DNA from: a virus
Lineage: Duplodnaviria; Caudoviricetes
Strand: one strand, 5' to 3'
DNA length: 59,230 nucleotides
IMG/VR virus record: IMGVR_UViG_3300020045_004392
Coordinates: 1-59,230 of that record
Made by a program: the position numbers and the translations under genes. Below the pieces are notes generated by a model. It searched no databases. It was given only the letters and a program-made list of their open reading frames with translations, and had not been told where the DNA came from. Numbering within the stretch: position 1 is the first letter of the stretch; every line of letters begins with the position of its first letter. This document shows positions 2,287 through 32,662 of the stretch, in pieces.

Positions 2287-2730
2287 ATGGCACGACCTTA
2301 TAATTATACAGAGGAAGAGAAAGAAGTCATTATAACCGATATTTGTAATCGGGTTATTGATGAAACTATTTCGTTTAATAAAGCCGTTAAAGATTCTCAA
2401 ATTAGTTATGTTACATTTTTTCAATGGTTATCTAAATCAGACAAGCTAAAGGAGCTTTATAACTACGCGTGTGAGATCAGATCAGATATTTTATTTGATG
2501 AAATGATTGATATTGCTGATGACGGTTCCAATGATTTTATGAAGAAACTAATGGGAGAAACTGAGATCGAAATATTAAATTCTGAACACATACAGAGATC
2601 TAGGTTGAGGGTTGATACTCGTAAATGGATATTGGCTAAAATGCAGCCTAAAAAATATGGTGATAAGATTAGCCAGGAAATTTCAGGCAGTTTATCAGTT
2701 ATCGAAGTTAAACCACCATCACTAGACTAA
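2287..2730 (+). CDS. terS: Terminase small subunit (Sf6 gp1-like)
   Basis: RSRLRVDTRKWILAKMQPKKYGDK motif; directly upstream of TerL. Confidence 0.85.
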   Translation: MARPYNYTEEEKEVIITDICNRVIDETISFNKAVKDSQISYVTFFQWLSKSDKLKELYNYACEIRSDILFDEMIDIADDGSNDFMKKLMGETEIEILNSEHIQRSRLRVDTRKWILAKMQPKKYGDKISQEISGSLSVIEVKPPSLD

Positions 2731-3965
2731 TGTTAATTGATCTTCATACTCATCAAGACAAGCTATTTAATCCATTAATTTACGATCTTAGGAAAGCTAA
2801 AACAAGATTTGTAAACAATTGGGGCGGTGCTGGTTCTGGCAAATCATATACACAAACACAGCATGAAATAATAAAATGTCTTGAAAAACCTGAAAAATTA
2901 TTAGTTACTCGCAAGGTTGCAAGTACGCTGAAAGATTCAGTTATAAGTTTATTTGTTTCAGTCTTAAACCAATGGGGTCTTGATGACTTCTACACTGAAA
3001 ATAAATCAACTCAATTCATTACTTTAACAAATGGGAGCCAGATTCTATTTAAGGGAATGGATGATCAGGAGAAAATTAAATCAATAGCTGGAATTACTCG
3101 CATATGGAATGAGGAAGCAAGCGAATTAACTCAGGCAGATATAAATCAGCTCAATTTGCGACTGCGTGGTAAGGATGGGTTACAAATGACAAATACATTT
3201 AACCCGATTGATGAAGAACATTTTCTAAAAGCATATTTTTTCGACAATCCGGATATGCTTACAAGAACTACAAATTTACATACTACTTACAAAGATAATA
3301 GGTTTATTGATGAGGCATATAAGGCAGAATTAGAAGGTTATCAGCATATTGATAAGAACTATTATAAAATTTATGCTCTTGGTGAATGGGGTGGAATTAC
3401 TGAGGGTCGTATATTTCCGATATGGGAACATATTGAGCGTTTCCCTGAAATTGATGGGCATTGGTACGGTCTTGATTTCGGGTTCTCAAATGATCCGACG
3501 GCAATTGTTAAAACTATCAAATGGAAAAACAGAATTTACTTTGATGAGCGGTTATATCGCGTTGGATTGACTAATCCTGATATTGCATCGTTTATGTTTG
3601 CCGATGGGTACAAAGGTCAAGTAGTTATTTGTGATTCAGCGGAGCCTAAAAGTATCGAAGAGCTTCGAAGGTTAGGGATAAATGCAATTGAAGCGCAAAA
3701 GGGGGCAGGCTCAATTATGGCAGGTATTGACTTTTTGAAGGCTCATAAGGTATTGGTAACTCAGTCAAGTTTAAACCTGATCCGTGAAAATAAATACTAC
3801 CAGTGGAAGGAACTGCCGCCAAACCGTCAAACTGCTAACAAGCGTTTCGACAATACGCCTAAGGATTGGATGAACCATTTAAAAGACGCTTGCCGTTATG
3901 CGTATTCACTTGGTGACTTTGCTCAGTCCGGTGGTAGCGTTGATGTTGGATGGGATGAACTTTAA
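2730..3965 (+). CDS. terL: Terminase large subunit, PBSX/SPP1 family
   Basis: GGAGSGKS Walker A, WNEEASE Walker B, GLDFGFSNDP and DSAEP nuclease motifs. Confidence 0.95.
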   Translation: MLIDLHTHQDKLFNPLIYDLRKAKTRFVNNWGGAGSGKSYTQTQHEIIKCLEKPEKLLVTRKVASTLKDSVISLFVSVLNQWGLDDFYTENKSTQFITLTNGSQILFKGMDDQEKIKSIAGITRIWNEEASELTQADINQLNLRLRGKDGLQMTNTFNPIDEEHFLKAYFFDNPDMLTRTTNLHTTYKDNRFIDEAYKAELEGYQHIDKNYYKIYALGEWGGITEGRIFPIWEHIERFPEIDGHWYGLDFGFSNDPTAIVKTIKWKNRIYFDERLYRVGLTNPDIASFMFADGYKGQVVICDSAEPKSIEELRRLGINAIEAQKGAGSIMAGIDFLKAHKVLVTQSSLNLIRENKYYQWKELPPNRQTANKRFDNTPKDWMNHLKDACRYAYSLGDFAQSGGSVDVGWDEL

Positions 3966-4025
3966 CCAATAATCATATTTTGTATTTGTAAATTTATTTT
4001 GTAATTTTCGCAAAAATATACAGAT

Positions 4026-5309
4026 ATGGCATTCCTCGATATTTTCAAAGGGTTAAAAAAGAATCCACTTCAGCAAGCTGTTTATGAATACTGGATACAC
4101 TCAGGCAATGTTAACAACATTCCAGACGATCCGGATGCTTATCTAAAGAAAGGATATTCAGCGAATACCACTGTTTATTCGATTGTTTCAAGGATTGATG
4201 CAATGCGTAAACAGGCTAAGTTAGTGCTAAAAGATCAGGCCGGAAATGTAGTCGAAACACACGAACTATTGAAGTTTCGTGATAGATTTAATAAATCGCT
4301 GACCACTAACGATGCCATTACTCAAATGCTGATTTATAAACTGGTTATCGGTGAATGGTTCGTGTATAAACTCGCACCTGATGCTGGGGCAAATAAGGGG
4401 AAAGTATCAGAATTACATTTACTTCCTGCTGCTGACGTTGAAATTATTGAGGGAACAATCTTTGATCCGGTGCGAGGGTATAAGATTGAAGGAAACTACA
4501 ATATTGAGTTACCTGTTGAATCGGTTTATCATGGCAAGTTATTCAATCCGAATTGGAATGATGAGCGTACTCTTCACGGGATGTCCCCACTACGCGCGGC
4601 TGCAAACACTGTATCGAAATTAAACCAGATTGAGATTACAGAAACAAAAGCATTCGAGAACCAGGGGCCACCGTATATCCTTTACAAAGAAAGTTCAACC
4701 GATCCAATGCAAAACCGGATGACCGATCCGCAAAGGGATGAGATCGTAAAAAAGATCAAAAACGCTGCAAAGGAAAACAATAGATCATTGCCGTTAGTGT
4801 TAAAAGACAAATTTGGAAAACTGGATTTAGGGCAAAAGCTTGCTGATATGACTATCATTGAGTCAAGCAACGCGGGTATCATTGCGCTTTGTGCTGTTTA
4901 TGGTGCGCCTCCTGAATTATTTGGATATGGTCAAAAGACTTACAACAACATGCAAGAGGCTCGTAAATCAATGTGGACTGACTGCCTTATGCCAAACCTT
5001 GATGCAATTGCCGAAACATTTAACGCGTGTACTATTTACGATACATCCGAATATCAGGGTCTATATTGGGATTGGGATTATTCCGAAATTGAAGAACTTC
5101 AGGAAGGAATGCAAATTAAGGTCAATTGGATGAAAGCCGCCGGATGGTCTTACAACGAGATTCGCAAAGTAACAGGCAAAGAGCCGATTGACAATCCTTT
5201 GATGGATGAGCCTGTTATTGGGATGGGAGACACTTTTTTGAGTGATTACGGGGATCCGTTGGATGATCAAGACCCGACAAAGAAAGACTTTAGCGATTAC
5301 AAGAAATGA
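4026..5309 (+). CDS. Portal protein (HK97-like)
   Basis: 427 aa after TerL; GMSPLRAA, TYNNMQEA and NEIRKVTGKEPI motifs. Confidence 0.9.
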   Translation: MAFLDIFKGLKKNPLQQAVYEYWIHSGNVNNIPDDPDAYLKKGYSANTTVYSIVSRIDAMRKQAKLVLKDQAGNVVETHELLKFRDRFNKSLTTNDAITQMLIYKLVIGEWFVYKLAPDAGANKGKVSELHLLPAADVEIIEGTIFDPVRGYKIEGNYNIELPVESVYHGKLFNPNWNDERTLHGMSPLRAAANTVSKLNQIEITETKAFENQGPPYILYKESSTDPMQNRMTDPQRDEIVKKIKNAAKENNRSLPLVLKDKFGKLDLGQKLADMTIIESSNAGIIALCAVYGAPPELFGYGQKTYNNMQEARKSMWTDCLMPNLDAIAETFNACTIYDTSEYQGLYWDWDYSEIEELQEGMQIKVNWMKAAGWSYNEIRKVTGKEPIDNPLMDEPVIGMGDTFLSDYGDPLDDQDPTKKDFSDYKK

Positions 5310-6091
5310 AAACCTCCACCCGCAAATTTGAAATCCAATACCTTCGCACCCGCAACGCAATCGAGCGCAAAGGCATACGATTAGTTCAGGCTGCTTTGCG
5401 TTTGCAATACACTCAATTCTTAGACCGTGCCAAAGACTTATCGCCGTCAATGTGGAATGACATAAAAATTAGCGAGCAACCGATCAAACAATTTTTTGAA
5501 CAGTTTTATCCAATGTCTGGGCGATTGGGACAAATGACAAGAAAAAATATGTTAGCACAAAAAAATCAGGTGAAATCTTTGGAAGACGATTTATATTTGT
5601 CAATTTACGAGCGACACATGCAACAACTTGTCGGGACGAATGATTATGCCAAACGAATTAACACAATCACAAATACAACCTCTGAGCGGATTAATAACGT
5701 TATTCAATCGGTAATGACTGAGGGTGAATTGGGCGGTTATGGAATTGATAAAATACGTCAATCGCTAACTGATGCAATTGGGGCCAGTATTCGCGGCAAC
5801 GTTCGCGCGCGGGCTAAAGCAATCGCACAGACTGAAATGATCAGCGCAAGCAATCAAGCGTCAACCTATGCAGCCGATTCAACTGGGTTAGAGTATCGGA
5901 AATATTGGAGTACTTCGCACTTGCAGGGTATCAGACCTACGCATATAATGGCTGAACAGGATTCAATTCAGCGTGGCGGGTATAAGAAAGACGAACGTTT
6001 TGCAAATGGGTTATTGTTCCCGGGAGATCCGGCTGGACCAGCCGAAGAAGTTGTGAATTGTCGCTGCACAGTTTTACACGAAATTTTGTAA
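5306..6091 (+). CDS. Minor head / head morphogenesis protein (SPP1 gp7 / Mu gpF-like)
   Basis: RAKAIAQTE, RPTH and FPGDP...VNCRC motifs. Confidence 0.85.
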   Translation: MKTSTRKFEIQYLRTRNAIERKGIRLVQAALRLQYTQFLDRAKDLSPSMWNDIKISEQPIKQFFEQFYPMSGRLGQMTRKNMLAQKNQVKSLEDDLYLSIYERHMQQLVGTNDYAKRINTITNTTSERINNVIQSVMTEGELGGYGIDKIRQSLTDAIGASIRGNVRARAKAIAQTEMISASNQASTYAADSTGLEYRKYWSTSHLQGIRPTHIMAEQDSIQRGGYKKDERFANGLLFPGDPAGPAEEVVNCRCTVLHEIL

Positions 6092-6138
6092 ATATGAAAT
6101 AAATATTTACATTTAACGAAAATTTACACACTCACATA

Positions 6139-6792
6139 ATGAAAGAACTTGAATTTAAATCGTTTCAAATATCAGAAGTAAAATCTGATGATTCAGGTAA
6201 TCTTATAATTAATGGATATGGCGCAACGTTCAACGACATTGACGACGGTGACGATCAAATTAAACAAGGTTCGTTTTTAGAAACACTCGTCGAGCGTGCT
6301 GGAAGGATCGCCTTTTGTTTCCAACATGACATTCATAATGCAGTTGGTAAGATTTTAGTCATTAATGAGGATGTAAAAGGATTGTTTCTTTCTGTAATGA
6401 TTAGTGCTGCTGAAGATGATTTGCAAATAAAAATCAAAGAGGAAATTTACAAAGAAATGTCAATCGGTTATAAAGTAATCGAATCACATTACGAACAAAT
6501 AAATGGTAAAAATATTCGTGTAATAACTAAAATTAAACTTTACGAAGTTAGCATCGTAACTATTGCGATGAATGAATATGCTACTATTGACAGTATGAAA
6601 TCAGAAGAACAACAGGATTTTATCAAAAAAGAATTTAACCGATTGATTGCTATTATCAGAAATGAAAACATAAACTATGAGCTTTTAAAATTGAAAGACT
6701 TAACTCTTTCCGTTCTCGCTCGAAAGACAGAACCGCCGAAAGAAGAGCCGCAAATGAAAGCTGATGACATATTGAAATTATTAAACTCTTAA
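6139..6792 (+). CDS. HK97-family prohead protease
   Basis: GYGATFN, FQHD, MSIGY and LYEVSIVT motifs. Confidence 0.9.
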   Translation: MKELEFKSFQISEVKSDDSGNLIINGYGATFNDIDDGDDQIKQGSFLETLVERAGRIAFCFQHDIHNAVGKILVINEDVKGLFLSVMISAAEDDLQIKIKEEIYKEMSIGYKVIESHYEQINGKNIRVITKIKLYEVSIVTIAMNEYATIDSMKSEEQQDFIKKEFNRLIAIIRNENINYELLKLKDLTLSVLARKTEPPKEEPQMKADDILKLLNS

Positions 6793-6802
6793 AATTTATA
6801 AC

Positions 6803-8035
6803 GTGGAAAAGAAAGAATTGGAATTAGCCTTAGAAACTCACGGTAAAGTGATTCAGGCAAAACAGGTAGAAATGCAAAAAGCAATTGATGCCAATTTGGA
6901 AGCCAAAGCCGTTGAACTTCAAAAGTCAATTGACGAAATGAAGGCCGCAAAAGAAGTCATGCAAAAGCAACTTGATGATCAGAATATCGAGATTCAGAAG
7001 TCAAGGATGCAAAAGAACGACGAAGAAGCCGTTTCACTTGAAAAGACTATTCGTCAACTGTTCGACTCGAAAGAGTTTAAAGATGCCAAAGCATCCGGAT
7101 TTAAGACTAAAAGTATGTTCCAGGTTAAAGCCGCTACTTCTGACATTACCGGAACTATTAACATGACTCAACAGCGGTTACAAGTTAAATTCAATCCTGA
7201 ACGCGCCTTGGCTTTCATGCCTTATCTTAATGTTGGTGTTATCGGAAACGATAAAAACCGCGTATTGTGGGTAGAAGGTGCTTACACTTCGAACGTGGGT
7301 TATGTTGGCGAAGGAGCTGGGCAGGCAAATGCTGACACTGGTACCGCTACCGAAAAGACCCGCGCAATGTGTAAGATAAGTGCAAAATTGCCGCTTACTG
7401 CCGAACTTTTGGAAGATGCTGAATATGTTACTTCTGCTTTCCGCATGAAAATGCAAGAAAAAGCAATGTTATTTACTGACCTTGAATGTTACGGTGGTGA
7501 TGGATCTGACGGCGTTAACCCTAACCATATTTATGGTATTAAAGGTCATGCAACTGCTTACAGTGCCGCAACTACCGGAACAACTGGCGCAAACGGCGTA
7601 GTCGATGCCAATATCGGCGATTTGATTGATGACATGATTTTGCAGGGCGAATTATCTGAACAACGCGGCATGAACGTTTTGTGGATGAATCCGAAAGACT
7701 TCGGCAAATTCAAACGTGCAAAAGACAATCAGGGTCAGTATCTTTTCGTGAAAGATGTGAACGGTCAGTATTCAATATCTGGCTTGAATGTTGTTAAATC
7801 AACCGCTGTTACTGTAAACACGATGACCATCGCCGACTCTGCAAAGATTCAGTTATGGTGGAAACGTAACCTCGAAGTAAAATTCAGTCAAATGAATGGA
7901 ACAGACTTCGTGGACGATACTTATACAGCTGTTCTATTCCTGAGAAATCAGGTTGTTGTTGAAGGCCCGGATAAAACCGCCTTAATTCATGTTGCGGACA
8001 TTGCCGCATCAATTGCAGCTATTACATTTGTATAA
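6803..8035 (+). CDS. Major capsid protein (HK97 fold) with coiled-coil delta domain
   Basis: Position after protease; ELLED, GDG...GI and WMNPKD motifs. Confidence 0.9.
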   Translation: MEKKELELALETHGKVIQAKQVEMQKAIDANLEAKAVELQKSIDEMKAAKEVMQKQLDDQNIEIQKSRMQKNDEEAVSLEKTIRQLFDSKEFKDAKASGFKTKSMFQVKAATSDITGTINMTQQRLQVKFNPERALAFMPYLNVGVIGNDKNRVLWVEGAYTSNVGYVGEGAGQANADTGTATEKTRAMCKISAKLPLTAELLEDAEYVTSAFRMKMQEKAMLFTDLECYGGDGSDGVNPNHIYGIKGHATAYSAATTGTTGANGVVDANIGDLIDDMILQGELSEQRGMNVLWMNPKDFGKFKRAKDNQGQYLFVKDVNGQYSISGLNVVKSTAVTVNTMTIADSAKIQLWWKRNLEVKFSQMNGTDFVDDTYTAVLFLRNQVVVEGPDKTALIHVADIAASIAAITFV

Positions 8036-8042
8036 CCAAAAC

Positions 8043-8062
8043 AGGGGGTGAAATATCCCCCT
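8043..8062 (+). promoter_or_regulatory. Stem-loop after capsid gene
   Basis: AGGGGG-TGAAATAT-CCCCCT; covarying counterpart at 54771-54792. Confidence 0.55.
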
Positions 8063-8079
8063 TAATACACTTTAAAAAT

Positions 8080-8490
8080 ATGAAAAAGTTTATTTTTATT
8101 GCGCTTTTTGGACTGATTACAATGTTCAGTCAGGCGCAAGTATCTGGGGGATTCACTTCTTTTGTGAATGACACAACGACTAATACTGAAACAGTTTATA
8201 TGGCAGTTGCAACGCCAAAGGCTATATATAGTAATCAAACATTGGCTATTGAATTGTCAGGAACAAACGCATCAGGTACAGCGACAGTTACGGCATCGCT
8301 CCAGGTTAGTGATGATAATGTACTTTGGTATAACTATGGTTCGTCTATTACCTTAAATAATGCCGGTACTGTATCGAATTATGCATGGGAGCTTGCAACC
8401 TCTGGATTTAGATACTATCGAGTCAGGTGTATATCTTCAGGGACAGGAGTCACGAATTTAAAAGGGAAACTGGGTTTAAAGCCTAGATAA
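8080..8490 (+). CDS. Signal-peptide-bearing beta-rich protein, possible capsid decoration protein
   Basis: MKKFIFIALFGLITMFSQA|Q leader; immediately after the capsid gene; homolog at 54810. Confidence 0.55.
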   Translation: MKKFIFIALFGLITMFSQAQVSGGFTSFVNDTTTNTETVYMAVATPKAIYSNQTLAIELSGTNASGTATVTASLQVSDDNVLWYNYGSSITLNNAGTVSNYAWELATSGFRYYRVRCISSGTGVTNLKGKLGLKPR

Positions 8491-8552
8491 TAACCGTATT
8501 TGGAATTAACAGGGGATCGTTTCCCCTGTACGGTTCACACAAATCTTATAGC

Positions 8553-8772
8553 AATGAAATACAAAGTGATCAAAGAGTATGCAGGAATTGAAGTTTATTC
8601 GGAAGTAAAACTATCTGAATCGAGCGCAAGATATATGATTGAACAGGGATATGTTGAGCCGATAACTGAACACCAATCAGCGCCCGTAACCGTTACAATT
8701 GAAGGGCGAAAATTAGCGCAAGTACTCAACAAAGCAATTGAACCAAATTATAAACGCAATAAAATTAAATAG
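8553..8772 (+). CDS. Small head-module protein
   Basis: ATG at 8553 preferred over TTG at 8500; conserved in copy B. Confidence 0.65.
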
Positions 8773-8774
8773 TC

Positions 8775-9029
8775 ATGGCAGTAGAATCAGTAGTTTTAAC
8801 GAAAAGCGCAGGTGACGATTATCAAATAGTCGTTGGCGGACAGTATTCTTATACAAAACAATTTCCACGTGCGGACTATTCCACCAACTCAGAGGGTATT
8901 AAATTGGTTCCTTACGTTGGTCCAGCAATCATGCATAAGTCATATCTTCCGGCAGCCTGGACAGTCGGAGTAACTACCGGATTTACGACAAACAAAGAAG
9001 TCACTGACGCAATAACAGCATTAGGATAA
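8775..9029 (+). CDS. Hypothetical head-module protein
   Basis: ORF tightly coupled within the operon. Confidence 0.65.
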   Translation: MAVESVVLTKSAGDDYQIVVGGQYSYTKQFPRADYSTNSEGIKLVPYVGPAIMHKSYLPAAWTVGVTTGFTTNKEVTDAITALG

Positions 9030-9844
9030 TGAAAAAGTTATTATCAATTATGATTCTGATGCTGATAGTATCGGTTTCATTTGCTCAGTTAGGTGGAAAG
9101 ACTACAATATCAAAAGTAACTGGATTGCAAACTGCTTTAGATGCTAAGGCAGATACATCTATTGTTTTAACTCAAACAGAAGCCGATGCAACGTATCTTC
9201 AACTAACAGATACCATTCCATTTAGTTCGATTGCTTATAATAAAACAGAAGTTGATAGTATTATCCATGTAGCCAATCAAAATCCAATATCAAAACTTAA
9301 ATACTTATTGGATGGAAGTACAGTAACTTTCCCAGTCGCAATGACAACATGGCTGACGGCTACTGGGGTGTTTACTTCTCAAAGATTTTATTATATGCTT
9401 ATTGAGGTTCCAGATTCGACAAGATATACAAAATTTCATTGGGTGTTGCAATCGCAGGGGGCATTCACTGAAAGTGACTACAATGGATTTGGTATTTATT
9501 CCGTCGCATCCAATGGAACCTTTACGAAAATTGTAGAAACTGCAAATGATGCTAGTGTATTTAAAACTGCCGTTGACGCACTTGGAACAAAAGCATTACC
9601 ATCGCCAATAATATTGCCTCCCGGAGTATATGCAATTGGGTGGCTATACTGTAGTTCGGCTCAATCTGCCGTTGTTGGGTATTACGGTAGTTCGGTGCTC
9701 GTTCCGGCAACGTCTGTTTTATTTTCAAATTCAATTAAATTAGGTGGATTTATAGCCACGCAGACATCGTTGCCTAATTCTTTTGCAGCATCGGCTGCAA
9801 CGCAATATAATTCAATTCCTTTTATTTGGATAGCTAATGATTAA
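9029..9844 (+). CDS. Signal-peptide protein with phage fibre-like repeat
   Basis: MKKLLSIMILMLIVSVSFA|Q leader; ISKVTGLQTALDAKAD resembles the phage tail-repeat motif. Confidence 0.55.
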   Translation: MKKLLSIMILMLIVSVSFAQLGGKTTISKVTGLQTALDAKADTSIVLTQTEADATYLQLTDTIPFSSIAYNKTEVDSIIHVANQNPISKLKYLLDGSTVTFPVAMTTWLTATGVFTSQRFYYMLIEVPDSTRYTKFHWVLQSQGAFTESDYNGFGIYSVASNGTFTKIVETANDASVFKTAVDALGTKALPSPIILPPGVYAIGWLYCSSAQSAVVGYYGSSVLVPATSVLFSNSIKLGGFIATQTSLPNSFAASAATQYNSIPFIWIAND

Positions 9845-11804
9845 GCAATTAATAATATTAATAATACTAGTGCTGTTTAAATTAACAACACTAGCAACGG
9901 TGTATCAGATTGCTAATCAATCAGCCTTTGATGCCTTTGATCAATCTACACTAGTGGCTGGAGATCAGATTTTATTTAATAAAGGTGAAACATTTATTGG
10001 TACTATCACTGTTCATAATTCAGGAACTTCCGGTAATCCTATTACTTACGGGGCTTATGGAACAGGTGCAAATCCAATTATTACTGGCCTTACAACTATT
10101 TCAGAATGGACAAATGAAGGTGGTGGTATTTATTCTAAAGTTATTACATCAGAAGCCCAAACGAACATGGTTACGGTTGATGGTGTAAATACCGCAATGG
10201 GAAGATCTCCCAATTCTACTTATCTTACTTACGAATCATTTAATACGAATGTTTCTATTACAGATACTGGATTAGGCACTTCAATTAATTGGACAGGAGC
10301 AGAAATCGTAATCCGTAAAAATGATTGGACATTGGATAGATGCCTGATTACAAATCATAGCGGAGATGTACTTACCTATAACAACCTAGGATCAACTCAA
10401 AATGCAACTGCTAATTATGGCTATTTTATTCAGAACGATTTAAGGACATTAGACCAATTAGGAGAATGGTATCATAGTACAAGCACAGGTAAATTTTATA
10501 TGTACTTTGGAGTAACTAATCCAACAAGTAAAACAGTTAAGGTTGCAACTGTTAGTAATTTGGTTAATGCAACTTCTTCAAATCCTTATATTACAATTCA
10601 AGATATATCATTCATAGGCTGCATTGATACTGCAATAAAATCAACAGAAGCAAATACAGGATATACAATAAATAATTGTGTGGTTTCATTTGCAGGAATG
10701 AATGGTATTTGGGCGGTAGGAACTTCTAATACAGTTACAAACAATCAAATATCTGATTGTGCTAAAATTGCAATTAGAAGTAATCGTCCAAATGTTGTTA
10801 TTACAGGAAATACTATAACGAATATCGGTATAATTGAAGGGCAGAGTGTCTCTGGAGGAAATAATGCAATAAGCATCGGTGAGCCTAGTAGTGCGTTGGT
10901 TCAAAATAATATAATTGAAAATATTGGATATAATGGGATTTACATAGGATCATACAATAGTACTGGATCAATTATCCGAAATAATTTTATAAATAATCCA
11001 TGTAAAATTGTATCTGATGGTGGTGGTATTTACACAGGAGGCACTCACACGTCGCTTGTAATTGATGGAAATATTATTTTAAATGTTCAAGCTAATAATA
11101 ACGGAACTAATGGAAAAACAGGACAGGGAGAGGGTGTTTATTTAGATGAATATGCTAATGGTATAACTGTTCAGAACAACACTATATCTAATTGTAATGG
11201 CTCTGGAATAAAAATACACAAAGGGCATGACAATATAATTCAAAATAATACTTGTTATAATAATGCACGAGGAATTACATTTCTCAATTCTGAATCTGCA
11301 AATAATATCGTTCGCAATACTTTAACCAGAAACATATTCGTTGCAAAGTACGCATCGACAAATCAATATTGCTTATACATTTATTCACCAATGAATGATA
11401 TTGCAAGTTTTGGAACTGCAACAAATAACTATTATGCAAGACCTATTGACGATGCTAACACTATTTTTACATATCAACCAAATACAGGATATGTATATAG
11501 AACACTTGCAAGCTGGCAGTCATTTACTAATCAGGATGCTAATTCTCACAAATCTCCATTTTCAATTTCATCAGAGTCTGACATTAGATTTGAGTATAAT
11601 GCCACAAACGAAAATAAAACAGTTATTTTAGATCAAAATTATAGAGATATTGTAAACAATGCAGATCACACGGCAGTAACACTAGGGCCATACACATCTA
11701 TTATTTTGTTGAAACACGCAGCATACCAAAGTACATCAACAAGAAAATCAGTATCAGGAAATAAAAAAACCATTGTTGATAATGGTAACGTTATAAGGAA
11801 TTAA
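9837..11804 (+). CDS. Right-handed parallel beta-helix protein (pectate-lyase-like fold), possible depolymerase or spike
   Basis: GDQILFNKGETF and PITYGAYGTGANPII motifs, Asn ladders, DGGGIY and GVYLDE; hydrophobic N-terminus. Confidence 0.8.
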   Translation: MIKQLIILIILVLFKLTTLATVYQIANQSAFDAFDQSTLVAGDQILFNKGETFIGTITVHNSGTSGNPITYGAYGTGANPIITGLTTISEWTNEGGGIYSKVITSEAQTNMVTVDGVNTAMGRSPNSTYLTYESFNTNVSITDTGLGTSINWTGAEIVIRKNDWTLDRCLITNHSGDVLTYNNLGSTQNATANYGYFIQNDLRTLDQLGEWYHSTSTGKFYMYFGVTNPTSKTVKVATVSNLVNATSSNPYITIQDISFIGCIDTAIKSTEANTGYTINNCVVSFAGMNGIWAVGTSNTVTNNQISDCAKIAIRSNRPNVVITGNTITNIGIIEGQSVSGGNNAISIGEPSSALVQNNIIENIGYNGIYIGSYNSTGSIIRNNFINNPCKIVSDGGGIYTGGTHTSLVIDGNIILNVQANNNGTNGKTGQGEGVYLDEYANGITVQNNTISNCNGSGIKIHKGHDNIIQNNTCYNNARGITFLNSESANNIVRNTLTRNIFVAKYASTNQYCLYIYSPMNDIASFGTATNNYYARPIDDANTIFTYQPNTGYVYRTLASWQSFTNQDANSHKSPFSISSESDIRFEYNATNENKTVILDQNYRDIVNNADHTAVTLGPYTSIILLKHAAYQSTSTRKSVSGNKKTIVDNGNVIRN

Positions 11805-11843
11805 TTAGATTTGTCACTATTCAAGCATTTTTAAAACAACAAT

Positions 11844-12356
11844 ATGCAACTAAAATTAGGAACAGTAACAACAGAGCCGATAACGTTGGCCGAAGCTAAA
11901 ACATGGTTAAAGGTTGATTATTCGGATGAGGATGCAATGATTACGAAGTTAATTACTTCGGTTCGTCATCAGGCCGAGTTATTTACCGGATTATCTTTAG
12001 TGGCTCGCACAATTGAATATTTTAATGAAGAAATAGCTGATGAAATTGTATTGCCTTATCCAGATCATGCCTCAATAACTGAAGTAAAGATTAACGATGT
12101 TGTTTCAACCTCATACAAGAAAACCGGATTAACTCAGTTTATTATTTATCCGGAATCAACTTATCTGTCTGGTGAAAATCAGCAAGGTATTTACATTAAG
12201 TATGTAACATCAGGAACAATACCAGAGGGCATTGATACCGAACTTCTGAAAATCATTGATGAGAAATATCGTAACCGTGGTAATACTTTCGAGGGTTCAA
12301 TTACTGAACTGAATGAAAATGCATATGCAAATTTGGCTAAATATTGTTTAATGTAA
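11844..12356 (+). CDS. Head-tail connector protein (gp6-like)
   Basis: EPITLAEAKTWLKVDYSDEDAMI motif. Confidence 0.85.
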   Translation: MQLKLGTVTTEPITLAEAKTWLKVDYSDEDAMITKLITSVRHQAELFTGLSLVARTIEYFNEEIADEIVLPYPDHASITEVKINDVVSTSYKKTGLTQFIIYPESTYLSGENQQGIYIKYVTSGTIPEGIDTELLKIIDEKYRNRGNTFEGSITELNENAYANLAKYCLM

Positions 12357-12420
12357 ACCCAATACACCCGACACGCTTCCCGTCAGATCAGCGCACTTGT
12401 CGGGTCTTATCTTGAATCGG

Positions 12421-12747
12421 ATGAACACAGGAAAACTAAATAGACGGATTACAATTGTAACGCCAGGCGCAATGACTCCGGATGGAATCGGTGGTTTTAC
12501 TGAAGGTACGAAAACTACGCGGGTTGCTTGGTGTTCAGCTAGGCAGTTGAGTATGGGAGAATCTTTGAGTTACGGACTTGAAACTTCAACCGCTTCATAT
12601 CGTTTCTCATTTCTGTATTTTGCCGCTGATGACATTACCCGGGTGAAGGAATTAACTTTCTCAGGTCGTACCTTTCGCATTGTGAACGTTGAGAATGTCG
12701 ATGAAGCAAAGAAAGAAATAACCGTTATCGCAAATGAGCGCAAATAA
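12421..12747 (+). CDS. Head closure / head-tail adaptor protein
   Basis: GKLNRRITI...DGIGG motif; synteny. Confidence 0.85.
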   Translation: MNTGKLNRRITIVTPGAMTPDGIGGFTEGTKTTRVAWCSARQLSMGESLSYGLETSTASYRFSFLYFAADDITRVKELTFSGRTFRIVNVENVDEAKKEITVIANERK

Positions 12748-13809: not shown

Positions 13810-14244
13810 ATGGCTACAAAAATTGGAACACGGGTATTAATTAAAGTCGCTGGTGGTTTGCTTGTTGGGCAGACTTCAGTAAGTTCATCGTTAGCCGCTA
13901 CGATGATCGAAATCAGTAACAAATTAAGCGGTAAACACTCAGAATTTGAGTATGGGCGCATCAATGAAACGCTATCCGTTGAGGGTATTGCGTCCAGTTC
14001 AAAAGAGGCAACATTAAAGGGATATTGGGAACTTCGGGCAGCGGTGAACGCTCACACGAAAGTCGCAGTTGTATTAACTGAGTATGCAGATGAAACTGCC
14101 GCCGCTGATGTAGTTGGAGCTGAAGAACTGACTTATCAGGCGTTGATTTCAGGTCTGGATGCTTCGTTTCCTGACAATGATAAATCAACATTCAGTTGTA
14201 ATTTACAGATAACCGGAATGCCTGCACAGGCAACGAACGCATAA
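13810..14244 (+). CDS. Major tail (tube) protein
   Basis: Synteny; TFSCNLQITG C-terminal motif. Confidence 0.8.
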   Translation: MATKIGTRVLIKVAGGLLVGQTSVSSSLAATMIEISNKLSGKHSEFEYGRINETLSVEGIASSSKEATLKGYWELRAAVNAHTKVAVVLTEYADETAAADVVGAEELTYQALISGLDASFPDNDKSTFSCNLQITGMPAQATNA

Positions 14245-14261
14245 CCGAATGAAAATATTTT

Positions 14262-14295
14262 AATACCCTGATGAATTTATTTTTATCAGGGTATT
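14262..14295. terminator. Inverted repeat after tail tube gene
   Basis: AATACCCTGAT / ATCAGGGTATT. Confidence 0.5.
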
Positions 14296-14323
14296 GTTAT
14301 TTAATACATTTGTGTTATATTTG
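14294..14323 (+). promoter_or_regulatory. Bacteroidota promoter for the RNA cluster
   Basis: TTG (14294-14296), 19-bp spacer, TATATTTG (14316-14323). Confidence 0.65.
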
Positions 14324-14326
14324 TAT

Positions 14327-14560
14327 CGTTCGTTGACGTTATTTGAAACTGTTAAGACGTGGGTTCGACTCCCACCACCTCCACCGCTTCGCCAAGTGCG
14401 CTAACCGGTCGCGATAGTACCGTTATCTTGGGGGTGTCTGGTTTTGATTGGCAGACGTAGGGTAATTGAGGACAAAAGCTATAACAGGCAACAATTTTGA
14501 AATGAAAGCCGCTGCATAGTGCAGTAGTGAACGCGGTACGCACCCGACCGAATACAGGGG
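14327..14560 (+). ncRNA. ssrA: Circularly permuted (two-piece) tmRNA
   Basis: T-arm GTGGG-TTCGACT-CCCAC plus CACCTCC-A-CC (14359-14385) precedes the 5' end GGGGGTG-TCTGGTTTTGA (14430). Acceptor stem has G3-U70. Tag ORF GNNFEMKAAA* at 14487-14519. Confidence 0.88.
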
Positions 14561-14566
14561 CAAAAC

Positions 14567-14648
14567 GCAAATGATGGTAAACGTGGTTAAATCAGCAGAC
14601 TGTAAATCCGTCGCTTCGGCTATTGGGGTTCGATTCCCTGCATTTGCA
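14567..14648 (+). tRNA. tRNA-Tyr (GTA)
   Basis: Acceptor GCAAATG/CATTTGC, anticodon loop CTGTAAA, long variable arm, T-loop TTCGATT. Atypical A8, one anticodon-stem mismatch, CCA not encoded. Confidence 0.8.
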
Positions 14649-14759
14649 CATATTTACCCTGCAATTCGTGTAATGCTTGTAATATTCAGGTAAAAGCAAG
14701 CCCAAAACTACTGAGGTTATCAGGACTAAAAAAATAGCCCAGATGTAGAAATCAATCGC

Positions 14760-14779
14760 TGGCCGAGTCGGCCATTTTT
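14760..14779 (+). terminator. Rho-independent terminator-like hairpin closing the RNA cluster
   Basis: TGGCCG-AGT-CGGCCA followed by TTTTT. Confidence 0.5.
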
Positions 14780-14799
14780 AACAAATTAATCCAAATCGC

Positions 14800-14955
14800 A
14801 TGACCGAAAACGAAAAACGAGACTTAAAGATTTCTTTGCAACTTAAAGATGAAGAAATAGCCAGGCAAATCGCAAAGCGCAAACTTGCCGAACAAACTCG
14901 CAATTGGACTATTATTTTAGTCGTAGTGATTCATGTTTTAATTTTGGTGATATGA
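14800..14955 (+). CDS. Small membrane protein (51 aa)
   Basis: Read manually: MTENEKRDLK...WTIILVVVIHVLILVI*; C-terminal hydrophobic helix. Confidence 0.6.
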   Translation: MTENEKRDLKISLQLKDEEIARQIAKRKLAEQTRNWTIILVVVIHVLILVI

Positions 14956-26359: not shown

Positions 26360-26805
26360 TAACCCTCGTAGAAAAAACTTTGCAAGACTTCGGACATTAC
26401 ACTCCTGACTCTGCTAATTTGATTCTCGGCACAATTGCCCAGGAATCAGCATACGGAAAATATCACAAACAAATTAACGGTCCAGCTTTAGGTATTTGCC
26501 AAATGGAGCCGGCAACGTTTAACGATATTTGCAAGAACTATCTTAAATACCATCCGGATATTACCGAGCGTATTAAATCAGTTTGCCATGTTAATGTACT
26601 TTCTGCTATTGATATGATCTCAAATGATCAATTAGCTATCTGTATGTGTAGAGTTCATTATTTGCGTCAAAAAGGCGCAATACCGACTACAATTGAAGGA
26701 TATGCAAAGTACTGGAAGCAATGGTATAATACGCCACTAGGGAAAGGTACTGAAACTGAATTTATCAGGAATTATCATTTGTGGGTGTTGAATGATCGGG
26801 ATTAA
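26356..26805 (+). CDS. Endolysin (lysozyme-like fold)
   Basis: LGTIAQES catalytic Glu, GPALGICQMEPAT and YWKQWYNTPLGKG motifs. Confidence 0.75.
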   Translation: MITLVEKTLQDFGHYTPDSANLILGTIAQESAYGKYHKQINGPALGICQMEPATFNDICKNYLKYHPDITERIKSVCHVNVLSAIDMISNDQLAICMCRVHYLRQKGAIPTTIEGYAKYWKQWYNTPLGKGTETEFIRNYHLWVLNDRD

Positions 26806-27187
26806 GTAGGTCACCGTATTTTTCCCTAAACTCACGATCTGTGTCTAAATATCCTTGGATCTTTTTAATTGAACTAAGTACAGTTGAATGGTCTTTGCCG
26901 CCAAAATAAGCACCAATTGCAGCCAGTGTACATTTTGTATTTTTTGATGCAATATAATGACAAAATTGACGAGGTAAAAGTATGTGAGGTTCACGTATTT
27001 TCATATTCAGGTACTCAGGAGTTAAGCCAGTTGCCTTGCAAACCATAGCCATGATTTGATCGAGCTTCATATAAACCTTGTTATCCTTGTTAAATATCCT
27101 CAATTCAAGTTCAAACTTAAAGTCTGATTGATTAAATGATTTGATTAATTCGTTTATTTTTTGCAATTCTTTTTCCATCGTATTCAT
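26765..27187 (-). CDS. DnaA C-terminal (domain IV)-like HTH protein
   Basis: PRQFCHYIA...TLAAIGAYFGGKDHSTVLSSIKKI matches the DnaA_C signature. Confidence 0.8.
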   Translation of the reverse strand: MNTMEKELQKINELIKSFNQSDFKFELELRIFNKDNKVYMKLDQIMAMVCKATGLTPEYLNMKIREPHILLPRQFCHYIASKNTKCTLAAIGAYFGGKDHSTVLSSIKKIQGYLDTDREFREKYGDLLNPDHSTPTNDNS

Positions 27188-27255
27188 ATTTTTTATATAT
27201 TTGTGTACTTCATAGGTTTGTTTAGGTTAGTTGATTTTTGATTAGGATTTGTTTT

Positions 27256-27286
27256 CCTCCCGGGGTGATTGCCGGGAGGTTTTTTT
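27256..27286 (+). terminator. Rho-independent terminator, possibly bidirectional
   Basis: CCTCCCGG-N8-CCGGGAGG plus T7. Confidence 0.7.
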
Positions 27287-27809
27287 ATGGATTAAAAAGC
27301 GTTGGCAATTTTCGTTCCACTGTAACAATTGTATCGTTATGGCTACCGCCATGAGCAACTAATAATATTTCAATTAATTCAAATCCTCTTTTCTTACCTA
27401 TTCCAGAACTATTCCACCCAAAGCACATAACTATTCCATTTGGCTTAACTATGCGGCTAATTTCGTTAATGTGTTTTGTTCTCCAACTGCTTTGTGTAGT
27501 TTCAGTTGTTACAGCAATCCCAACATTTTTATAACATTCTGAAACTTGCCTTAGTGAATAAGGTGGATCATAAAAAACAAAATCCAGAGAATTATCAGCA
27601 AATTTTTTAAGAAAATCAACAGCATCTAAATGATAATCTGTTTTCATTTCAGGGTTTAGATCATTGGTGACTTTTGCCAACTTACTTTTATTTGCAAATG
27701 GGTCTACGCTTTCAAAACTTGACTTTAGGTACTTATGAATCAATTTGCTGATACATTTAATATCAAAAGTGTTTGAATTAGGCATTTCCCATACTCTATT
27801 AAAAATCAT
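27285..27809 (-). CDS. Short amino-DNA methyltransferase (N6A/N4C type)
   Basis: VDPFAN SAM-binding-like motif and YDPPYS catalytic motif. Confidence 0.75.
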   Translation of the reverse strand: MIFNRVWEMPNSNTFDIKCISKLIHKYLKSSFESVDPFANKSKLAKVTNDLNPEMKTDYHLDAVDFLKKFADNSLDFVFYDPPYSLRQVSECYKNVGIAVTTETTQSSWRTKHINEISRIVKPNGIVMCFGWNSSGIGKKRGFELIEILLVAHGGSHNDTIVTVERKLPTLFNP

Positions 27810-28252
27810 ATCGTTTCCTCCATCTTTTTAACACTCTTCACTCTCACCCCATTCAAACAATCCTGTTCCTTTACCAAATAAACCATGTAAGCCGATCCTG
27901 TGTAACAAATTTCAATACCTGTTTTTGGTGCGGACTGATCCCGAACGTTCGATTCATGATTAAGCCAACCTGATGAGATTTTCTCAACGTTCCAAAACTC
28001 AAAAGATTCTGATCCTGTAATCAGCGTTACCTTATACCGCTTGCCAGATACGACACGATTTGAGCAAAAAAACATGATTATTGCAGCCTGTTTATCTGAT
28101 TCAATGAATTCGCGTAATGTTTCGAAATAAGCAAACAAACGGCCGGATAAAGCTATCTGATTTGATGTATCAGGTAGTTCGTATAACTTTTGCGTTGCAG
28201 TGTCAAATACGCAAATGTTTGGCGAGTCGGTGGGGACTATGCGGATGGTCAT
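27806..28252 (-). CDS. Hypothetical protein
   Basis: ATGA-coupled ORF. Confidence 0.6.
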   Translation of the reverse strand: MTIRIVPTDSPNICVFDTATQKLYELPDTSNQIALSGRLFAYFETLREFIESDKQAAIIMFFCSNRVVSGKRYKVTLITGSESFEFWNVEKISSGWLNHESNVRDQSAPKTGIEICYTGSAYMVYLVKEQDCLNGVRVKSVKKMEETI

Positions 28253-28608
28253 AGTAGTTCGGTATTATCGTGAATGTTGCCGATGACTTCAACATCTTTG
28301 TCATTAACAGCCTCGCCAAACCAATGACTAAACGCCCATTTTTTGCTGTCAATAATGAATGATGCAAACTTATTAGACCATCCAACTAGAAGATGTCTTT
28401 CTCCTGAATCTTTCACAATATCACCCTCAAATATCTTAACTCCGTTTTTGTCGGTTAATCCGGTGAATTGGCCGACTGAATCAGGGATTACTTCATCAAA
28501 ATCAGTATAACTAGATACTGCTGTAATAATTAAATTTTCAAATATTCCACCTTCAACCCATTCCCCATTATCAATTCGTTTCCCTCTAAATAATATTGGT
28601 CTTTTCAT
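28249..28608 (-). CDS. YopX family protein
   Basis: ILFRGKR...GQFTGLTDKNGVKIFEGDIV...EVIGNIHD. Confidence 0.9.
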   Translation of the reverse strand: MKRPILFRGKRIDNGEWVEGGIFENLIITAVSSYTDFDEVIPDSVGQFTGLTDKNGVKIFEGDIVKDSGERHLLVGWSNKFASFIIDSKKWAFSHWFGEAVNDKDVEVIGNIHDNTELL

Positions 28609-28946
28609 AATATTTCTTCTATTTGTTTTTTAAATTCTTCTAATGATCTCACCAAATAATAATTAATTCCTTGCTGATTAACTTTGACTTGCCATTCGAT
28701 TTGCGCAGGTGATTGCCGTCCTATTTCAGTTTTAAACTCAAAACAGTACAATGTTCCACGCCAGATAAATAAGCAGTCAGATACGCCTGATATTAGCCCT
28801 ACTGCCTTGCGTTGCATTGCCCGTGCTATATGTTCTGAATTGTTCGTAACTGAGAAGAACAGTCCTCGCGTCTGTGGGTGCGTATTCCACAACCACATGA
28901 CGCACGATGCTTGATTTTGGGATTCTGTTAACATACTTCTGCCCAC
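28605..28946 (-). CDS. VRR-NUC domain nuclease
   Basis: GLISGVSD...FEFKT..GRQSPAQ PD-(D/E)xK motif. Confidence 0.85.
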   Translation of the reverse strand: MGRSMLTESQNQASCVMWLWNTHPQTRGLFFSVTNNSEHIARAMQRKAVGLISGVSDCLFIWRGTLYCFEFKTEIGRQSPAQIEWQVKVNQQGINYYLVRSLEEFKKQIEEIL

Positions 28947-29686
28947 TTACCATGAGAATAAACAACAGGACACAAAAATGATTTTATTGTTTTTGCGTGA
29001 ATGTCTGCTTTTCTGACATGTTCAAAATTCACAGTTTCTATTTTAATGTGTGGATTGCCGTTATGATATAATGATTTTACTTTCGTCCCCACCGGATACC
29101 TCCGTTTTGCTTCAGCCAGTAATTCTTCTTCCGTTGCGGTTGTCCAGTCGCGGTCTGCTTTAGGTAGCACGCGCCCCTTTTCATCACGTTTCAAATTCTT
29201 ACGCGAAAGTTTTGACTTTAACTCTGCTATTTCAGTTTCGGCAACTTTTAAGCAAGTCTGTGCGATTTTGAGTTCGTCCTTCAAATAGGTATTTTTACAC
29301 GCAATCCGATACCGTTCTTTCGACACTTCTTCCAATTCCGTTTCACGGTCTTTCAAGTCCGTTCGAAGGCTAGTGTTTCCAAATCGCAACTTATCATCAT
29401 GTTCCTGAATCGAAGCATATTTCAGCATCAGGCGCACGTGCATATCTCCCTGAGTATCGTTAAACTTTCGTTCTTCAGCTAATTCAGTAGCAAGTAGATC
29501 AAACTCTTCGTGTCGTTGCTTTTTCTCAATTTCTGAGAATTTGCGCCACTTTTTTAGCTTTTTGATTTCGTGCCGGATTTCATAATTGCGCAAGGCAAGC
29601 GAAACAGTACAGATGATAAACAATGCTGCAATAAATAATGAGCCGATAAATAACGAGTCTTGAAGTGATTGGGTGAATGAGTTCAT
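28928..29686 (-). CDS. Membrane-anchored coiled-coil protein
   Basis: N-terminal TM, long heptad region, C-terminal EELLAEAKRRYPVGTK. Confidence 0.6.
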   Translation of the reverse strand: MNSFTQSLQDSLFIGSLFIAALFIICTVSLALRNYEIRHEIKKLKKWRKFSEIEKKQRHEEFDLLATELAEERKFNDTQGDMHVRLMLKYASIQEHDDKLRFGNTSLRTDLKDRETELEEVSKERYRIACKNTYLKDELKIAQTCLKVAETEIAELKSKLSRKNLKRDEKGRVLPKADRDWTTATEEELLAEAKRRYPVGTKVKSLYHNGNPHIKIETVNFEHVRKADIHAKTIKSFLCPVVYSHGKWAEVC

Positions 29687-29790
29687 TTTGATTTGTTTTT
29701 AGATGTTAGTACTAAGATTACAATAATTAATATGATAACGCCAGCGATGTAATAATCGGGCATTGCGTCGATGCGGTCAAGTAGGTTCAT
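29683..29790 (-). CDS. Small membrane peptide (35 aa)
   Basis: MNLLDRIDAMPDYYIAGVIILIIVILVLTSKNKSK*; ATGA overlaps on both ends. Confidence 0.6.
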   Translation of the reverse strand: MNLLDRIDAMPDYYIAGVIILIIVILVLTSKNKSK

Positions 29791-29909
29791 TTTAACAGGA
29801 AGTTTAAAACGTCATACCCGAATGCAGCCGCAAAAATCATAGCAGCAAATGAAACGTAAGCAATAGCAGCGATCAAATTTACTTTCCAATTTGGTAATCG
29901 TTTTGTCAT
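29787..29909 (-). CDS. Small membrane peptide (40 aa)
   Basis: MTKRLPNWKVNLIAAIAYVSFAAMIFAAAFGYDVLNFLLK*. Confidence 0.6.
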   Translation of the reverse strand: MTKRLPNWKVNLIAAIAYVSFAAMIFAAAFGYDVLNFLLK

Positions 29910-29913
29910 TTTA

Positions 29914-29943
29914 TTTGCCCGTCATGCCGGTAGCGAAGCGTTA
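29914..29943 (-). promoter_or_regulatory. Repeated 5' leader motif, copy 1
   Basis: Minus strand TAACGCTTCGCTACCGGCATGACGGGCAAA, 4 nt before ATG; TATATTTG promoter at 29956-29963. Confidence 0.7.
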
Positions 29944-30006
29944 ATTTGTATAGACCAAATATAAACACATTTGTGCTAATATGCAAGATGTTTAAAAACA
30001 TATTGA

Positions 30007-32385: not shown

Positions 32386-32422
32386 GTCGGTAGGATTAGG
32401 ATTTAAGGCACTGAAAAGAAAG

Positions 32423-32602
32423 TTATTTGATAATACCGTGTTTTTTTAGGATGGTTTGAACCGCATCAATCATTTCATTAATAATTGGTTCGTGTACCTT
32501 TGGAATTGAGTCGTGGCGAATTACTGAACGAGTACCTGAAAAAATACGGCTTACTTCTCCCCAGTTGAAAATTTTTTTATTTTTGTCGATTTGTTTTGAC
32601 AT
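32423..32602 (-). CDS. Small putative DNA-binding protein
   Basis: MSKQIDK...FNWGEVSRIFSGTRS; TACATTTG promoter at 32650-32657 on -. Confidence 0.55.
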   Translation of the reverse strand: MSKQIDKNKKIFNWGEVSRIFSGTRSVIRHDSIPKVHEPIINEMIDAVQTILKKHGIIK

Positions 32603-32662
32603 TGTATAAGTTTTTAAGTGTTTGAACTTCGTATGATAATGATGTAGCACAAATGTAGTAAA

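Follow-up and report, generated by a model that had tools for sequence, protein, structure and literature searches.

Transfer-messenger RNA (tmRNA) is normally about 360 nucleotides (nt) long and has four pseudoknots, and the pseudoknot PK1 is held to be important in the standard molecule. Bacteria of the phylum Bacteroidota have a one-piece tmRNA. In the classical two-piece tmRNAs, known from Alphaproteobacteria, one lineage of Betaproteobacteria and cyanobacteria (Rfam models RF01849, RF01850 and RF01851, merged as RF04321), the gene is circularly permuted, such that the 3′ half is encoded first, followed by a spacer and the 5′ half. Phages can carry such genes. In those parts of Buchholz et al. 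(2022; PMC9004378) that deal with them, 53 two-piece structures called by ARAGORN are given for 18,146 phage genomes, and the permuted ssrA genes of the OM43 phage Melnitz, of pelagimyophages and of others, also found by ARAGORN, are of the alphaproteobacterial type and match the two-piece form of their hosts, that of Melnitz being under a glutamine riboswitch. Here we describe a permuted tmRNA gene on the + strand of the IMG/VR virus record IMGVR_UViG_3300020045_004392; the window that we analysed is the whole record, which is linear and 59,230 nt long, with a CheckV estimate of 82%. We conclude that this gene very probably encodes a phage-borne, circularly permuted two-piece tmRNA that is compact and has no pseudoknot before its tag.

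ARAGORN called a permuted tmRNA (tmRNA*) at 14294-14610 with the tag GNNFEMKAAA*, and RF04321 matched 14338-14519 with 51.3 bits against a cut-off of 47 (E = 3.6e-7). A first-pass annotation, made from the letters of the window, had proposed a permuted two-piece tmRNA with this same tag and had named both searches as checks; their outcome, together with the covariation described below, bears the proposal out. RF04321 was the only tmRNA model to reach its gathering threshold in the window: the alphaproteobacterial, betaproteobacterial and cyanobacterial models RF01849, RF01850 and RF01851 did not, and the standard tmRNA model RF00023 gave 26 bits against a cut-off of 47. A nearly identical gene from a related contig (L009) scored 38.6 bits on RF01850, for which the cut-off is 84, and matched model positions 66-178 only. 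According to the description of the model in PMC11915505, RF04321 was built from alphaproteobacterial, betaproteobacterial and cyanobacterial seeds only.

The two halves of the tRNA-like domain stand in permuted order. The acceptor piece (14327-14385), whose 5′ end we place from the promoter, contains the T-arm (14359-14375), the acceptor 3′ strand CACCUCC (14376-14382), the discriminator A14383 and CC at 14384-85; the base after CC is a G, and the terminal A of CCA is not encoded. An intervening segment of 44 nt (14386-14429), presumably removed in maturation, is followed by the coding piece (14430-14566), the 3′ end of which would lie at or before 14566, as set by RNase P cleavage at the 5′ end of a tRNA-Tyr gene. 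The coding piece begins with the acceptor 5′ strand GGGGGUG (14430-14436) and the D-loop motif UGGUUUUGA (14439-47). Across the spacer, GGGGGUG and CACCUCC form a 7-bp acceptor stem with a G3-U70 pair (G14432-U14380), the identity element for alanine, and CUGUUAA at 14349-55 pairs with UUGGCAG at 14448-54 (helix P2a). After an A-rich single strand (14474-86), the tag open reading frame (ORF; 14487-14519) runs from the resume codon GGC at 14487 to the stop codon UAG at 14517-19, which lies in the loop of a hairpin (14512-16/14520-24). Upstream, the promoter box TATATTTG at 14316-14323 has the form of the Bacteroidota-type -7 box TAnnTTTG, and its position suggests a transcription start at about 14327. 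Promoter, T-arm, CACCTCC-A-CC, 44-nt spacer, GGGGGTG, G3-U70 and tag frame are all found where the first-pass annotation had placed them. The standard layout of PK1 and PK2-4 is absent: the 39 nt from the D-loop to the resume codon are filled by the three parts of P2 (P2a, P2b and P2c), and no more than 47 nt follow the stop codon.

Pattern scans of IMG/VR for the permuted arrangement returned 20 loci with spacers of 20-50 nt and 34 loci with spacers of 51-81 nt, and a metagenome scan returned 6 loci. Of the first 20 loci, 16 fall under the betaproteobacterial or alphaproteobacterial permuted models of Rfam (RF01850/RF01849), all 16 with UUCGA in the D-loop; the other four are compact, have UUUGA and score 50-55 bits on RF04321, as the window gene does. 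One of these four is part of a phage genome that is complete and has terminal repeats (G002; 42,969 bp, CheckV 100%), and the permuted pattern with UUUGA occurred in only 1 contig when one genome per species was scanned for 185,579 bacterial and archaeal species. Given these two results, we regard the gene as a phage gene rather than an artefact of host flanks. The single contig from that scan (L069; CAYXVT010000013.1, 27 kb, from a ‘Candidatus Berkiella’ metagenome-assembled genome) has its own terminator and a tag read as GKSVEMYPTQRKAA; it could come from a phage or prophage that ended up in the bin of a gammaproteobacterium.

A scan for the 5′ motif alone gave at least 113 stretches, 80 of which were taken with their flanks. 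By a strict rule requiring a perfect 7-bp acceptor partner next to the T-loop, 20 of the 80 were permuted, 23 were one-piece and 37 stayed unclassified, and ARAGORN called 22 permuted and 19 one-piece genes in the same set. Pooling the scans yielded at least 42 permuted records with the motif. We left out L069, L117, L122, L129 and L039 (no recognisable tag), L031 and L007 (incomplete leader) and L047 (betaproteobacterial-like tag), and the 34 that remained comprise at least 26 non-redundant members at <85% identity. Family members share the D-loop motif UGGNUUUGA, have mostly G-initial tags and leave no room for a pseudoknot before the tag. The window gene has this motif, which was also a search criterion, along with the permuted order, no pre-tag pseudoknot and a phage setting. 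Family spacers range from 18 to 126 nt on a count that runs 2 nt longer than the true spacer (46 for the window gene). In 8 of the 26 members an exact TAnnTTTG box has its end 35-56 nt before the T-stem, and upstream of the family genes this box was counted 14 times in the forward orientation and 4 times as its reverse complement. We conclude that the window gene is one member of a phage family already annotated in public records. The first-pass annotation had pictured a single event in this phage, which does not hold given at least 26 non-redundant members, annotated tmRNAs of crAss-like phages included. Separately, an 82.7-kb phage contig (L073; G001:C1:18000-37900) has a tmRNA with an integrase about 1 kb upstream and only three ORFs of at least 200 amino acids, read in the standard bacterial code, in the surrounding 19.9 kb; this scarcity may reflect many small genes or a reassigned stop codon.

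We aligned 16 sequences with MAFFT (alignment A2) and counted 15 pairs: those of the T-arm and of the acceptor stem, together with the first three of P2a. Paired cells amounted to 98.8%, compared with 82.6 ± 1.5% in shuffles (0 of 500 reached the observed value), and sliding the partners by 1-3 columns left 45-58% paired. Compensatory changes on both sides were seen in 8 of the 15 pairs, and three P2a pairs have changes on both sides. The G3-U70 pair is invariant in all 16 relatives, and every aligned sequence has an open tag frame of 10-16 codons that starts from the same resume column and ends in small hydrophobic residues. From this alignment, in which the P2 strands are not column-aligned, RNAalifold recovered no more than the T-arm and the acceptor stem. 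Because MAFFT does not column-align the longer P2 strands, we instead compared duplex energies of cognate and swapped partners across the 26 non-redundant members. Cognate partners paired better than swapped partners in P2a (-4.68 versus -2.04 ± 0.27 kcal/mol), P2b (-4.69 versus -3.36 ± 0.30 kcal/mol), P2c (-7.02 versus -4.98 ± 0.38 kcal/mol) and the tag-end hairpin (-11.46 versus -7.41 ± 0.53 kcal/mol), and in each of the four comparisons 0 of 5000 permutations were as low. An earlier run with 13 members, from which the near-duplicates L009 and L029 and the doubtful-tag L039 were left out, gave the same pattern; whole-segment duplex energies against shuffled leaders proved to be a test without power. 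We conclude that the gene is real and permuted, that its tRNA-like domain, P2 and tag-end hairpin are under selection, and that its tag frame is conserved.

Several observations weigh against a compact, functional two-piece tmRNA. With only 39 nt between the D-loop and the resume codon there is no PK1; the tag has KAAA at its end in place of the usual LAA; the record, which is linear, looks chimeric; and single-sequence minimum-energy folds are inconsistent and recover no single structure. In the RNA libraries of two studies, spacer and coding piece are covered by two contigs of low depth, one with 14430-14588 plus 18 nt of spacer and the other with 14394-14539; they look unprocessed and could be DNA carry-over, and are at most a weak hint of an unprocessed transcript. 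The remaining points concern which partner the leader of the acceptor piece chooses. In P2, its strands 14349-55 (P2a), 14338-42 (P2b) and 14328-31 (P2c) pair with 14448-54, 14462-66 and 14470-73 of the coding piece, respectively. Its 5′ end, CGUUCGUUG at 14327-35, is also complementary to UAGUGAACG at 14525-33 in the tail of the coding piece, over nine contiguous pairs including three G-U, and such a helix would enclose the mRNA-like domain as in the classical two-piece tmRNAs. The window gene folds to -33.2 kcal/mol with this tail helix and to -31.9 kcal/mol with P2b and P2c (core alone, -29.5 kcal/mol), a difference of 1.3 kcal/mol in favour of the tail helix; L009 carries a compensatory double change in it (C14327T with G14533A); and two of the 13 members in the first test, L024 (z = -3.9) and L064 (z = -3.4), have strong leader-tail complementarity.

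However, the tail helix is not kept among relatives. G14529T breaks its central C-G pair in all five relatives compared (L009 and contigs from the public runs X1, X5, X15 and X17), and the X5 contig, which covers the region in full and retains C14327 but has A14533, A14333 and T14529, loses three of the nine pairs. Across the 26 members, pairing of the leader with the 45 nt after the stop codon was no better for cognate partners (-10.44 kcal/mol) than for swapped partners (-9.98 ± 0.48 kcal/mol; 846 of 5000 permutations as low). In contrast, the natural variants that fall in P2a or P2c, in L009 and contigs from public sequencing runs, all turn a G-U into an A-U pair (G14450A, G14451A and G14471A). 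Since the tail helix is broken in relatives while the P2a and P2c variants keep their pairing, we favour a three-part P2 between the leader of the acceptor piece and the 39 nt before the resume codon. It is more likely that the leader pairs upstream of the tag, through P2b and P2c, than with the tail, and we consider an enclosed mRNA-like domain unlikely. Thus, of the two inter-piece helices in the first-pass annotation, CTGTTAA/TTGGCAG covaries (0 of 5000 swapped sets as low), whereas the complementarity of 14327-35 and 14525-33, although real, is broken in close relatives and finds no support across the family. A three-part P2 leaves no room for PK1, and the mRNA-like domain would therefore be a 3′ extension.

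The possible H-type pseudoknot of the first-pass annotation in the 3′ trailer (14534-14560), with complementarity between 14534-37 and 14547-50 and between 14543-45 and 14557-59, lacks support: L009, nearly identical to the window gene, is alone in keeping this stretch, and elsewhere in the family a plain hairpin or a terminator takes its place. Tags fall into a long group ending …PLRAVA or …LRMAV (for example L032, L037, L062, L109, L127 and L145) and a short group ending …MKAAA or …AMAA (for example the window gene, L126 and L055). The stop codon also lies in a hairpin loop in the short-tag members L126, L141, L124 and L104, with stem sequences that differ between members; long-tag members have a hairpin inside the tag, and the conserved Leu-Arg of their tags may reflect the sequence of the hairpin loop, not selection on the peptide. 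The spacer holds a cluster of natural variants (T14423G, T14424G, C14427T and an insertion after 14429).

The steps from transcription to tagging can be proposed because of the analogy with known two-piece tmRNAs. The promoter at 14316-23 would drive a single precursor comprising the acceptor piece, the 44-nt spacer, the coding piece and tRNA-Tyr, and ending at a terminator at 14760-79. Host RNase P would make two cuts, one at G14430 and one at the 5′ end of tRNA-Tyr, and host 3′ trimming and the CCA-adding enzyme would complete the acceptor end to …CACCUCC-A-CC(A). The two pieces, of about 60 nt and at most 137 nt, would be held together by the 7-bp acceptor stem and the three-part P2, formed by the acceptor-piece leader and the stretch just before the tag, with the mRNA-like part (GGC at 14487, the tag GNNFEMKAAA and a stop codon in a hairpin loop) hanging as a 3′ extension. 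Host alanyl-tRNA synthetase would charge the molecule by way of G3-U70. We found no SmpB (PF01668) in the record, and since the phage encodes none, the partner would be host SmpB. Ribosomes stalled in infected cells would then be rescued, with the addition of A-GNNFEMKAAA. Transcription, processing, CCA addition, charging, use of SmpB, tagging and benefit to the phage are all inferred in this scheme. Because the gene lies between late structural genes and has a divergent tag, it is reasonable to consider, as speculation, roles in freeing ribosomes late in infection, in coping with host nucleases or in changing the fate of tagged proteins, the last two of which the first-pass annotation had also raised.

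A different function for the same RNA is conceivable. Instead of tagging, it could act as a decoy that soaks up host SmpB or alanyl-tRNA synthetase, or competes with host tmRNA, and so shuts down host trans-translation. A phage without an SmpB gene and an RNA stripped of pseudoknots would suit such a role, and a molecule like the form in mycobacteriophage DS6A, which consists of the tRNA-like domain only, inhibits tmRNA in Escherichia coli according to the relevant parts of PMC4131195 and PMC11915505. However, a pure decoy would have no need of a tag frame with resume codon and stop, or of a covarying tag-end hairpin, and these are kept in 16 of 16 aligned relatives and in the 26 members; we judge a decoy to be improbable. 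We give almost no credence to a remnant or software artefact, in which an attP-like copy of a host ssrA 3′ end lies by chance upstream of an unrelated G-rich stretch: ARAGORN does give false permuted calls, as in Cellulophaga phage phi4:1, but the acceptor pairs covary across the spacer, which contradicts the unrelated attP copy that the first-pass annotation had itself raised, the tag frame is conserved in 16 of 16 sequences, no integrase is found among the PHROG matches of the 72 window ORFs, a relative (IMGVR_UViG_3300020045_004202) has the same gene at the same place, and a family member lies in the complete phage genome with terminal repeats.

The two-piece tmRNA gene sits between late structural genes in what appears, from sequence features, to be a transcription unit of its own, made up of terminator, promoter box, gene, tRNA and terminator. 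Upstream on the + strand, the major tail protein gene (13810-14244; phrog_1407) is closed by a terminator-like hairpin at 14261-14296, which has a 15-pair stem and a T-rich tail. Downstream, the coding piece directly adjoins the tRNA-Tyr gene (GTA anticodon; 14567-14649, + strand), called by ARAGORN and scoring 38.6 bits on the Rfam tRNA model against a cut-off of 29; it is probably co-transcribed with the tmRNA. A terminator-like hairpin with a T-run at 14760-14779 (+ strand) would end the unit. In contig IMGVR_UViG_3300020045_004202, the major tail protein is 83% identical to that of the window, and the nearly identical tmRNA (L009) has the same tag and occupies the same place. L009 is not followed by tRNA-Tyr, which is kept in two related contigs from public runs. 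In contigs from two public runs, tRNA-Tyr is followed by sequence like the approach to a small ORF starting MTENEK (14800 in the window; region 14650-14955), and L009 reaches this ORF about 30 nt after the tmRNA; the window thus has about 110 extra bases, and a terminator, after tRNA-Tyr. No public sequencing run contained half or more of the sampled words, and contigs from four runs were compared.

PHROG matches of the window ORFs indicate a siphovirus-like phage with an HK97-type head. The + strand encodes small and large terminase, portal, protease, major head protein, adaptors, tail terminator, major tail protein and tail genes. A replication module on the - strand (26765-43969) encodes a primase/helicase, a helicase, an exonuclease, an Erf-like annealing protein and four DNA methyltransferases; the latter (27285-27809, 32663-33439, 39578-40312 and 40380-41483, all on the - strand, within about 17 kb) suggest heavy investment against restriction. 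A second, related structural module starts at 44545 and shares 76-86% DNA identity with the first; window positions 2725-12484 match 45477-58129, and positions 1-1760 match 42457-44310 at 73-92% DNA identity. Given this second module and the match of 42457-44310 to the first part of the window, the record reads as about 1.4 unit lengths of a phage genome of about 42.5 kb, in which two related but diverged versions are joined head to tail. It could be either a tandem prophage pair or an assembly that followed a circular genome round and then continued into a related strain. This two-genome make-up is not reflected in the CheckV completeness of 82%. About 3.3 kb of the second module (48496-51822), lying between its portal and head-morphogenesis genes, have no counterpart in the first; they include a 770-amino-acid ORF (49242-51554) with no PHROG match. 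The modules also differ in their small terminases, which fall into separate PHROGs (1482 and 606).

A tblastn search with the primase/helicase matched 41 phage records at low identity (24-35%). An organism is named in 35 of these records, and in every case the host belongs to Bacteroidota: Flavobacterium (21), Cellulophaga (9), Polaribacter (2), and Bacteroides, Maribacter and Tenacibaculum (1 each). No host signal came from the large terminase, its best matches being <45% identical and spread over many phyla, and the major capsid protein had no relative among the genome contigs searched. The TAnnTTTG promoter consensus and weak use of Shine-Dalgarno sequences are traits of Bacteroidota. In the window, 6 of 70 ORFs are preceded by a Shine-Dalgarno-like motif, which is no enrichment over random positions (6.4 ± 2.4), and TAnnTTTG was counted 97 times where 78.7 ± 8.7 were expected (3 of 100 shuffles gave at least as many). 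Based on the primase relatives, the lack of Shine-Dalgarno enrichment and the TAnnTTTG box, the phage most likely infects Bacteroidota, in agreement with the first-pass annotation, which had taken it for a Bacteroidota-type phage.

Among known tmRNAs, those of crAss-like phages (Suoliviridae) come closest to the window gene. A family member on a 99-kb contig (L120) matches RefSeq crAss-like phages, five of which have a tmRNA annotation under the match; in cr115_1 (NC_055898.1) the annotated tmRNA at 42525-42886 coincides with an ARAGORN permuted call with the tag GNTSYIMNYSRIAA. Like the window gene, the crAss-like genes, such as that of cr115_1, are phage-borne and small, with the permuted order, the UGGNUUUGA D-loop motif and a G-initial tag. 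They differ in their carriers, which are crAss-like podophages, the window phage being siphovirus-like, of HK97 type and about 42.5 kb long, and in their tags, that of the window gene being shorter and ending in KAAA. As a side observation, a RAGATH-9 RNA (RF03146; 158.5 bits against a cut-off of 75.2; L190, 210-389) ends 13 nt inside the annotated start of the cr115_1 permuted tmRNA gene. In Table S1 of PMC9004378, several crAssphage genomes and Cellulophaga phage phi4:1 are among the entries given as ‘Permuted’. We rejected phi4:1 (NC_021788.1; L071, 1730-2391) as a member: the ARAGORN call is 662 nt long and runs over three tRNA genes in a 14-tRNA array, RF04321 does not match, and the entry is probably a false positive. 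The permuted tmRNA of Stenotrophomonas phage Marzo, which is of the UUUCGAC type with the tag ANDDSYTVRIAA, was set aside as a different lineage. Searches of the literature on permuted, two-piece or phage tmRNA did not find a description of the compact phage type. New here are the occurrence of this type in a siphovirus-like phage, the structural test across the family and the corrected topology; the gain from this window is modest, as the kind is already annotated in public phage records.

One-piece tmRNAs offer a second comparison. Cellulophaga phage Calle_1 (MT732432.1, 43002-43361; Bartlau et al. 2021, PMC8776804), a cultured phage of Bacteroidota, has a tmRNA with the same motif, CUGGUUUUGAC, whose 3′ half is 90% identical to the family member L037 over 40 nt; it differs in its standard order, full size of 360 nt, 86.6 bits on RF00023 and 21-residue tag. 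With blastn against a collection of 50,697 phage records, the window gene and L024 had no match, and L058, L021, L062 and L037 had only matches of 36-65 nt to the tRNA-like 3′ halves of unrelated phage tmRNAs. The one-piece forms found here measure 397-399 nt, about twice the size of the window gene. The UGGNUUUGA motif is shared with one-piece tmRNAs of three kinds, namely that of Calle_1, those of other phage contigs and two full-size genes at contig starts with the tag GENNYALAA, which we take to be a Bacteroidota host tag; a full-text literature search for the string GENNYALAA gave no match. The 3′ end of one of these two genes has 94.7% identity over 38 nt to the tmRNA of phage cr125_1.

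These likenesses fit a permutation of a Bacteroidota-type tmRNA that is separate from the classical lineages, although this is not proven, since the UGGNUUUGA motif was a search criterion and no tree stands behind it. The independent, compact permutation of the first-pass annotation keeps some ground here: the gene is compact, has no match to the lineage models and shares the motif with one-piece tmRNAs, which fits a separate origin, but it is not a one-off in this phage. Tentatively, the family may be a phage-only lineage with its own permutation of a Bacteroidota-type one-piece tmRNA, apart from the alphaproteobacterial, betaproteobacterial and cyanobacterial events. Such a lineage would have lost the pre-tag pseudoknot, and probably the later ones, would carry its mRNA-like domain as a free 3′ tail without a closing helix, and would have spread over unrelated phage groups, crAss-like podophages and HK97-type siphophages, while its tags (…LRAVA and …MKAAA) drifted from GENNYALAA, presumably the host type. 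Were this so, the phages would free stalled ribosomes, and the tagged proteins would meet a different proteolytic fate or escape it.

Only four parts of the gene appear to be kept under selection: the tRNA-like domain in its two halves, the three-part P2, a short tag frame and a single hairpin. If functional, the molecule would be a natural minimal tmRNA, and phages of a phylum with one-piece tmRNA would carry a two-piece form of their own with a different tag; two questions thereby become testable, namely the purpose of the pseudoknots and the reason for phages to carry ribosome-rescue genes. Unlike the two-piece tmRNA of the Melnitz type, the window gene fails the lineage-specific Rfam models and is most likely carried by a phage of Bacteroidota. 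With the classical two-piece tmRNAs it shares the order of 3′ half, spacer and 5′ half, an acceptor stem formed across the spacer, an inter-piece P2 and a tag ORF on the coding piece. It departs from them in having UUUGA rather than UUCGA in the D-loop, no room for PK1, and no family-level support for a helix closing the mRNA-like domain.

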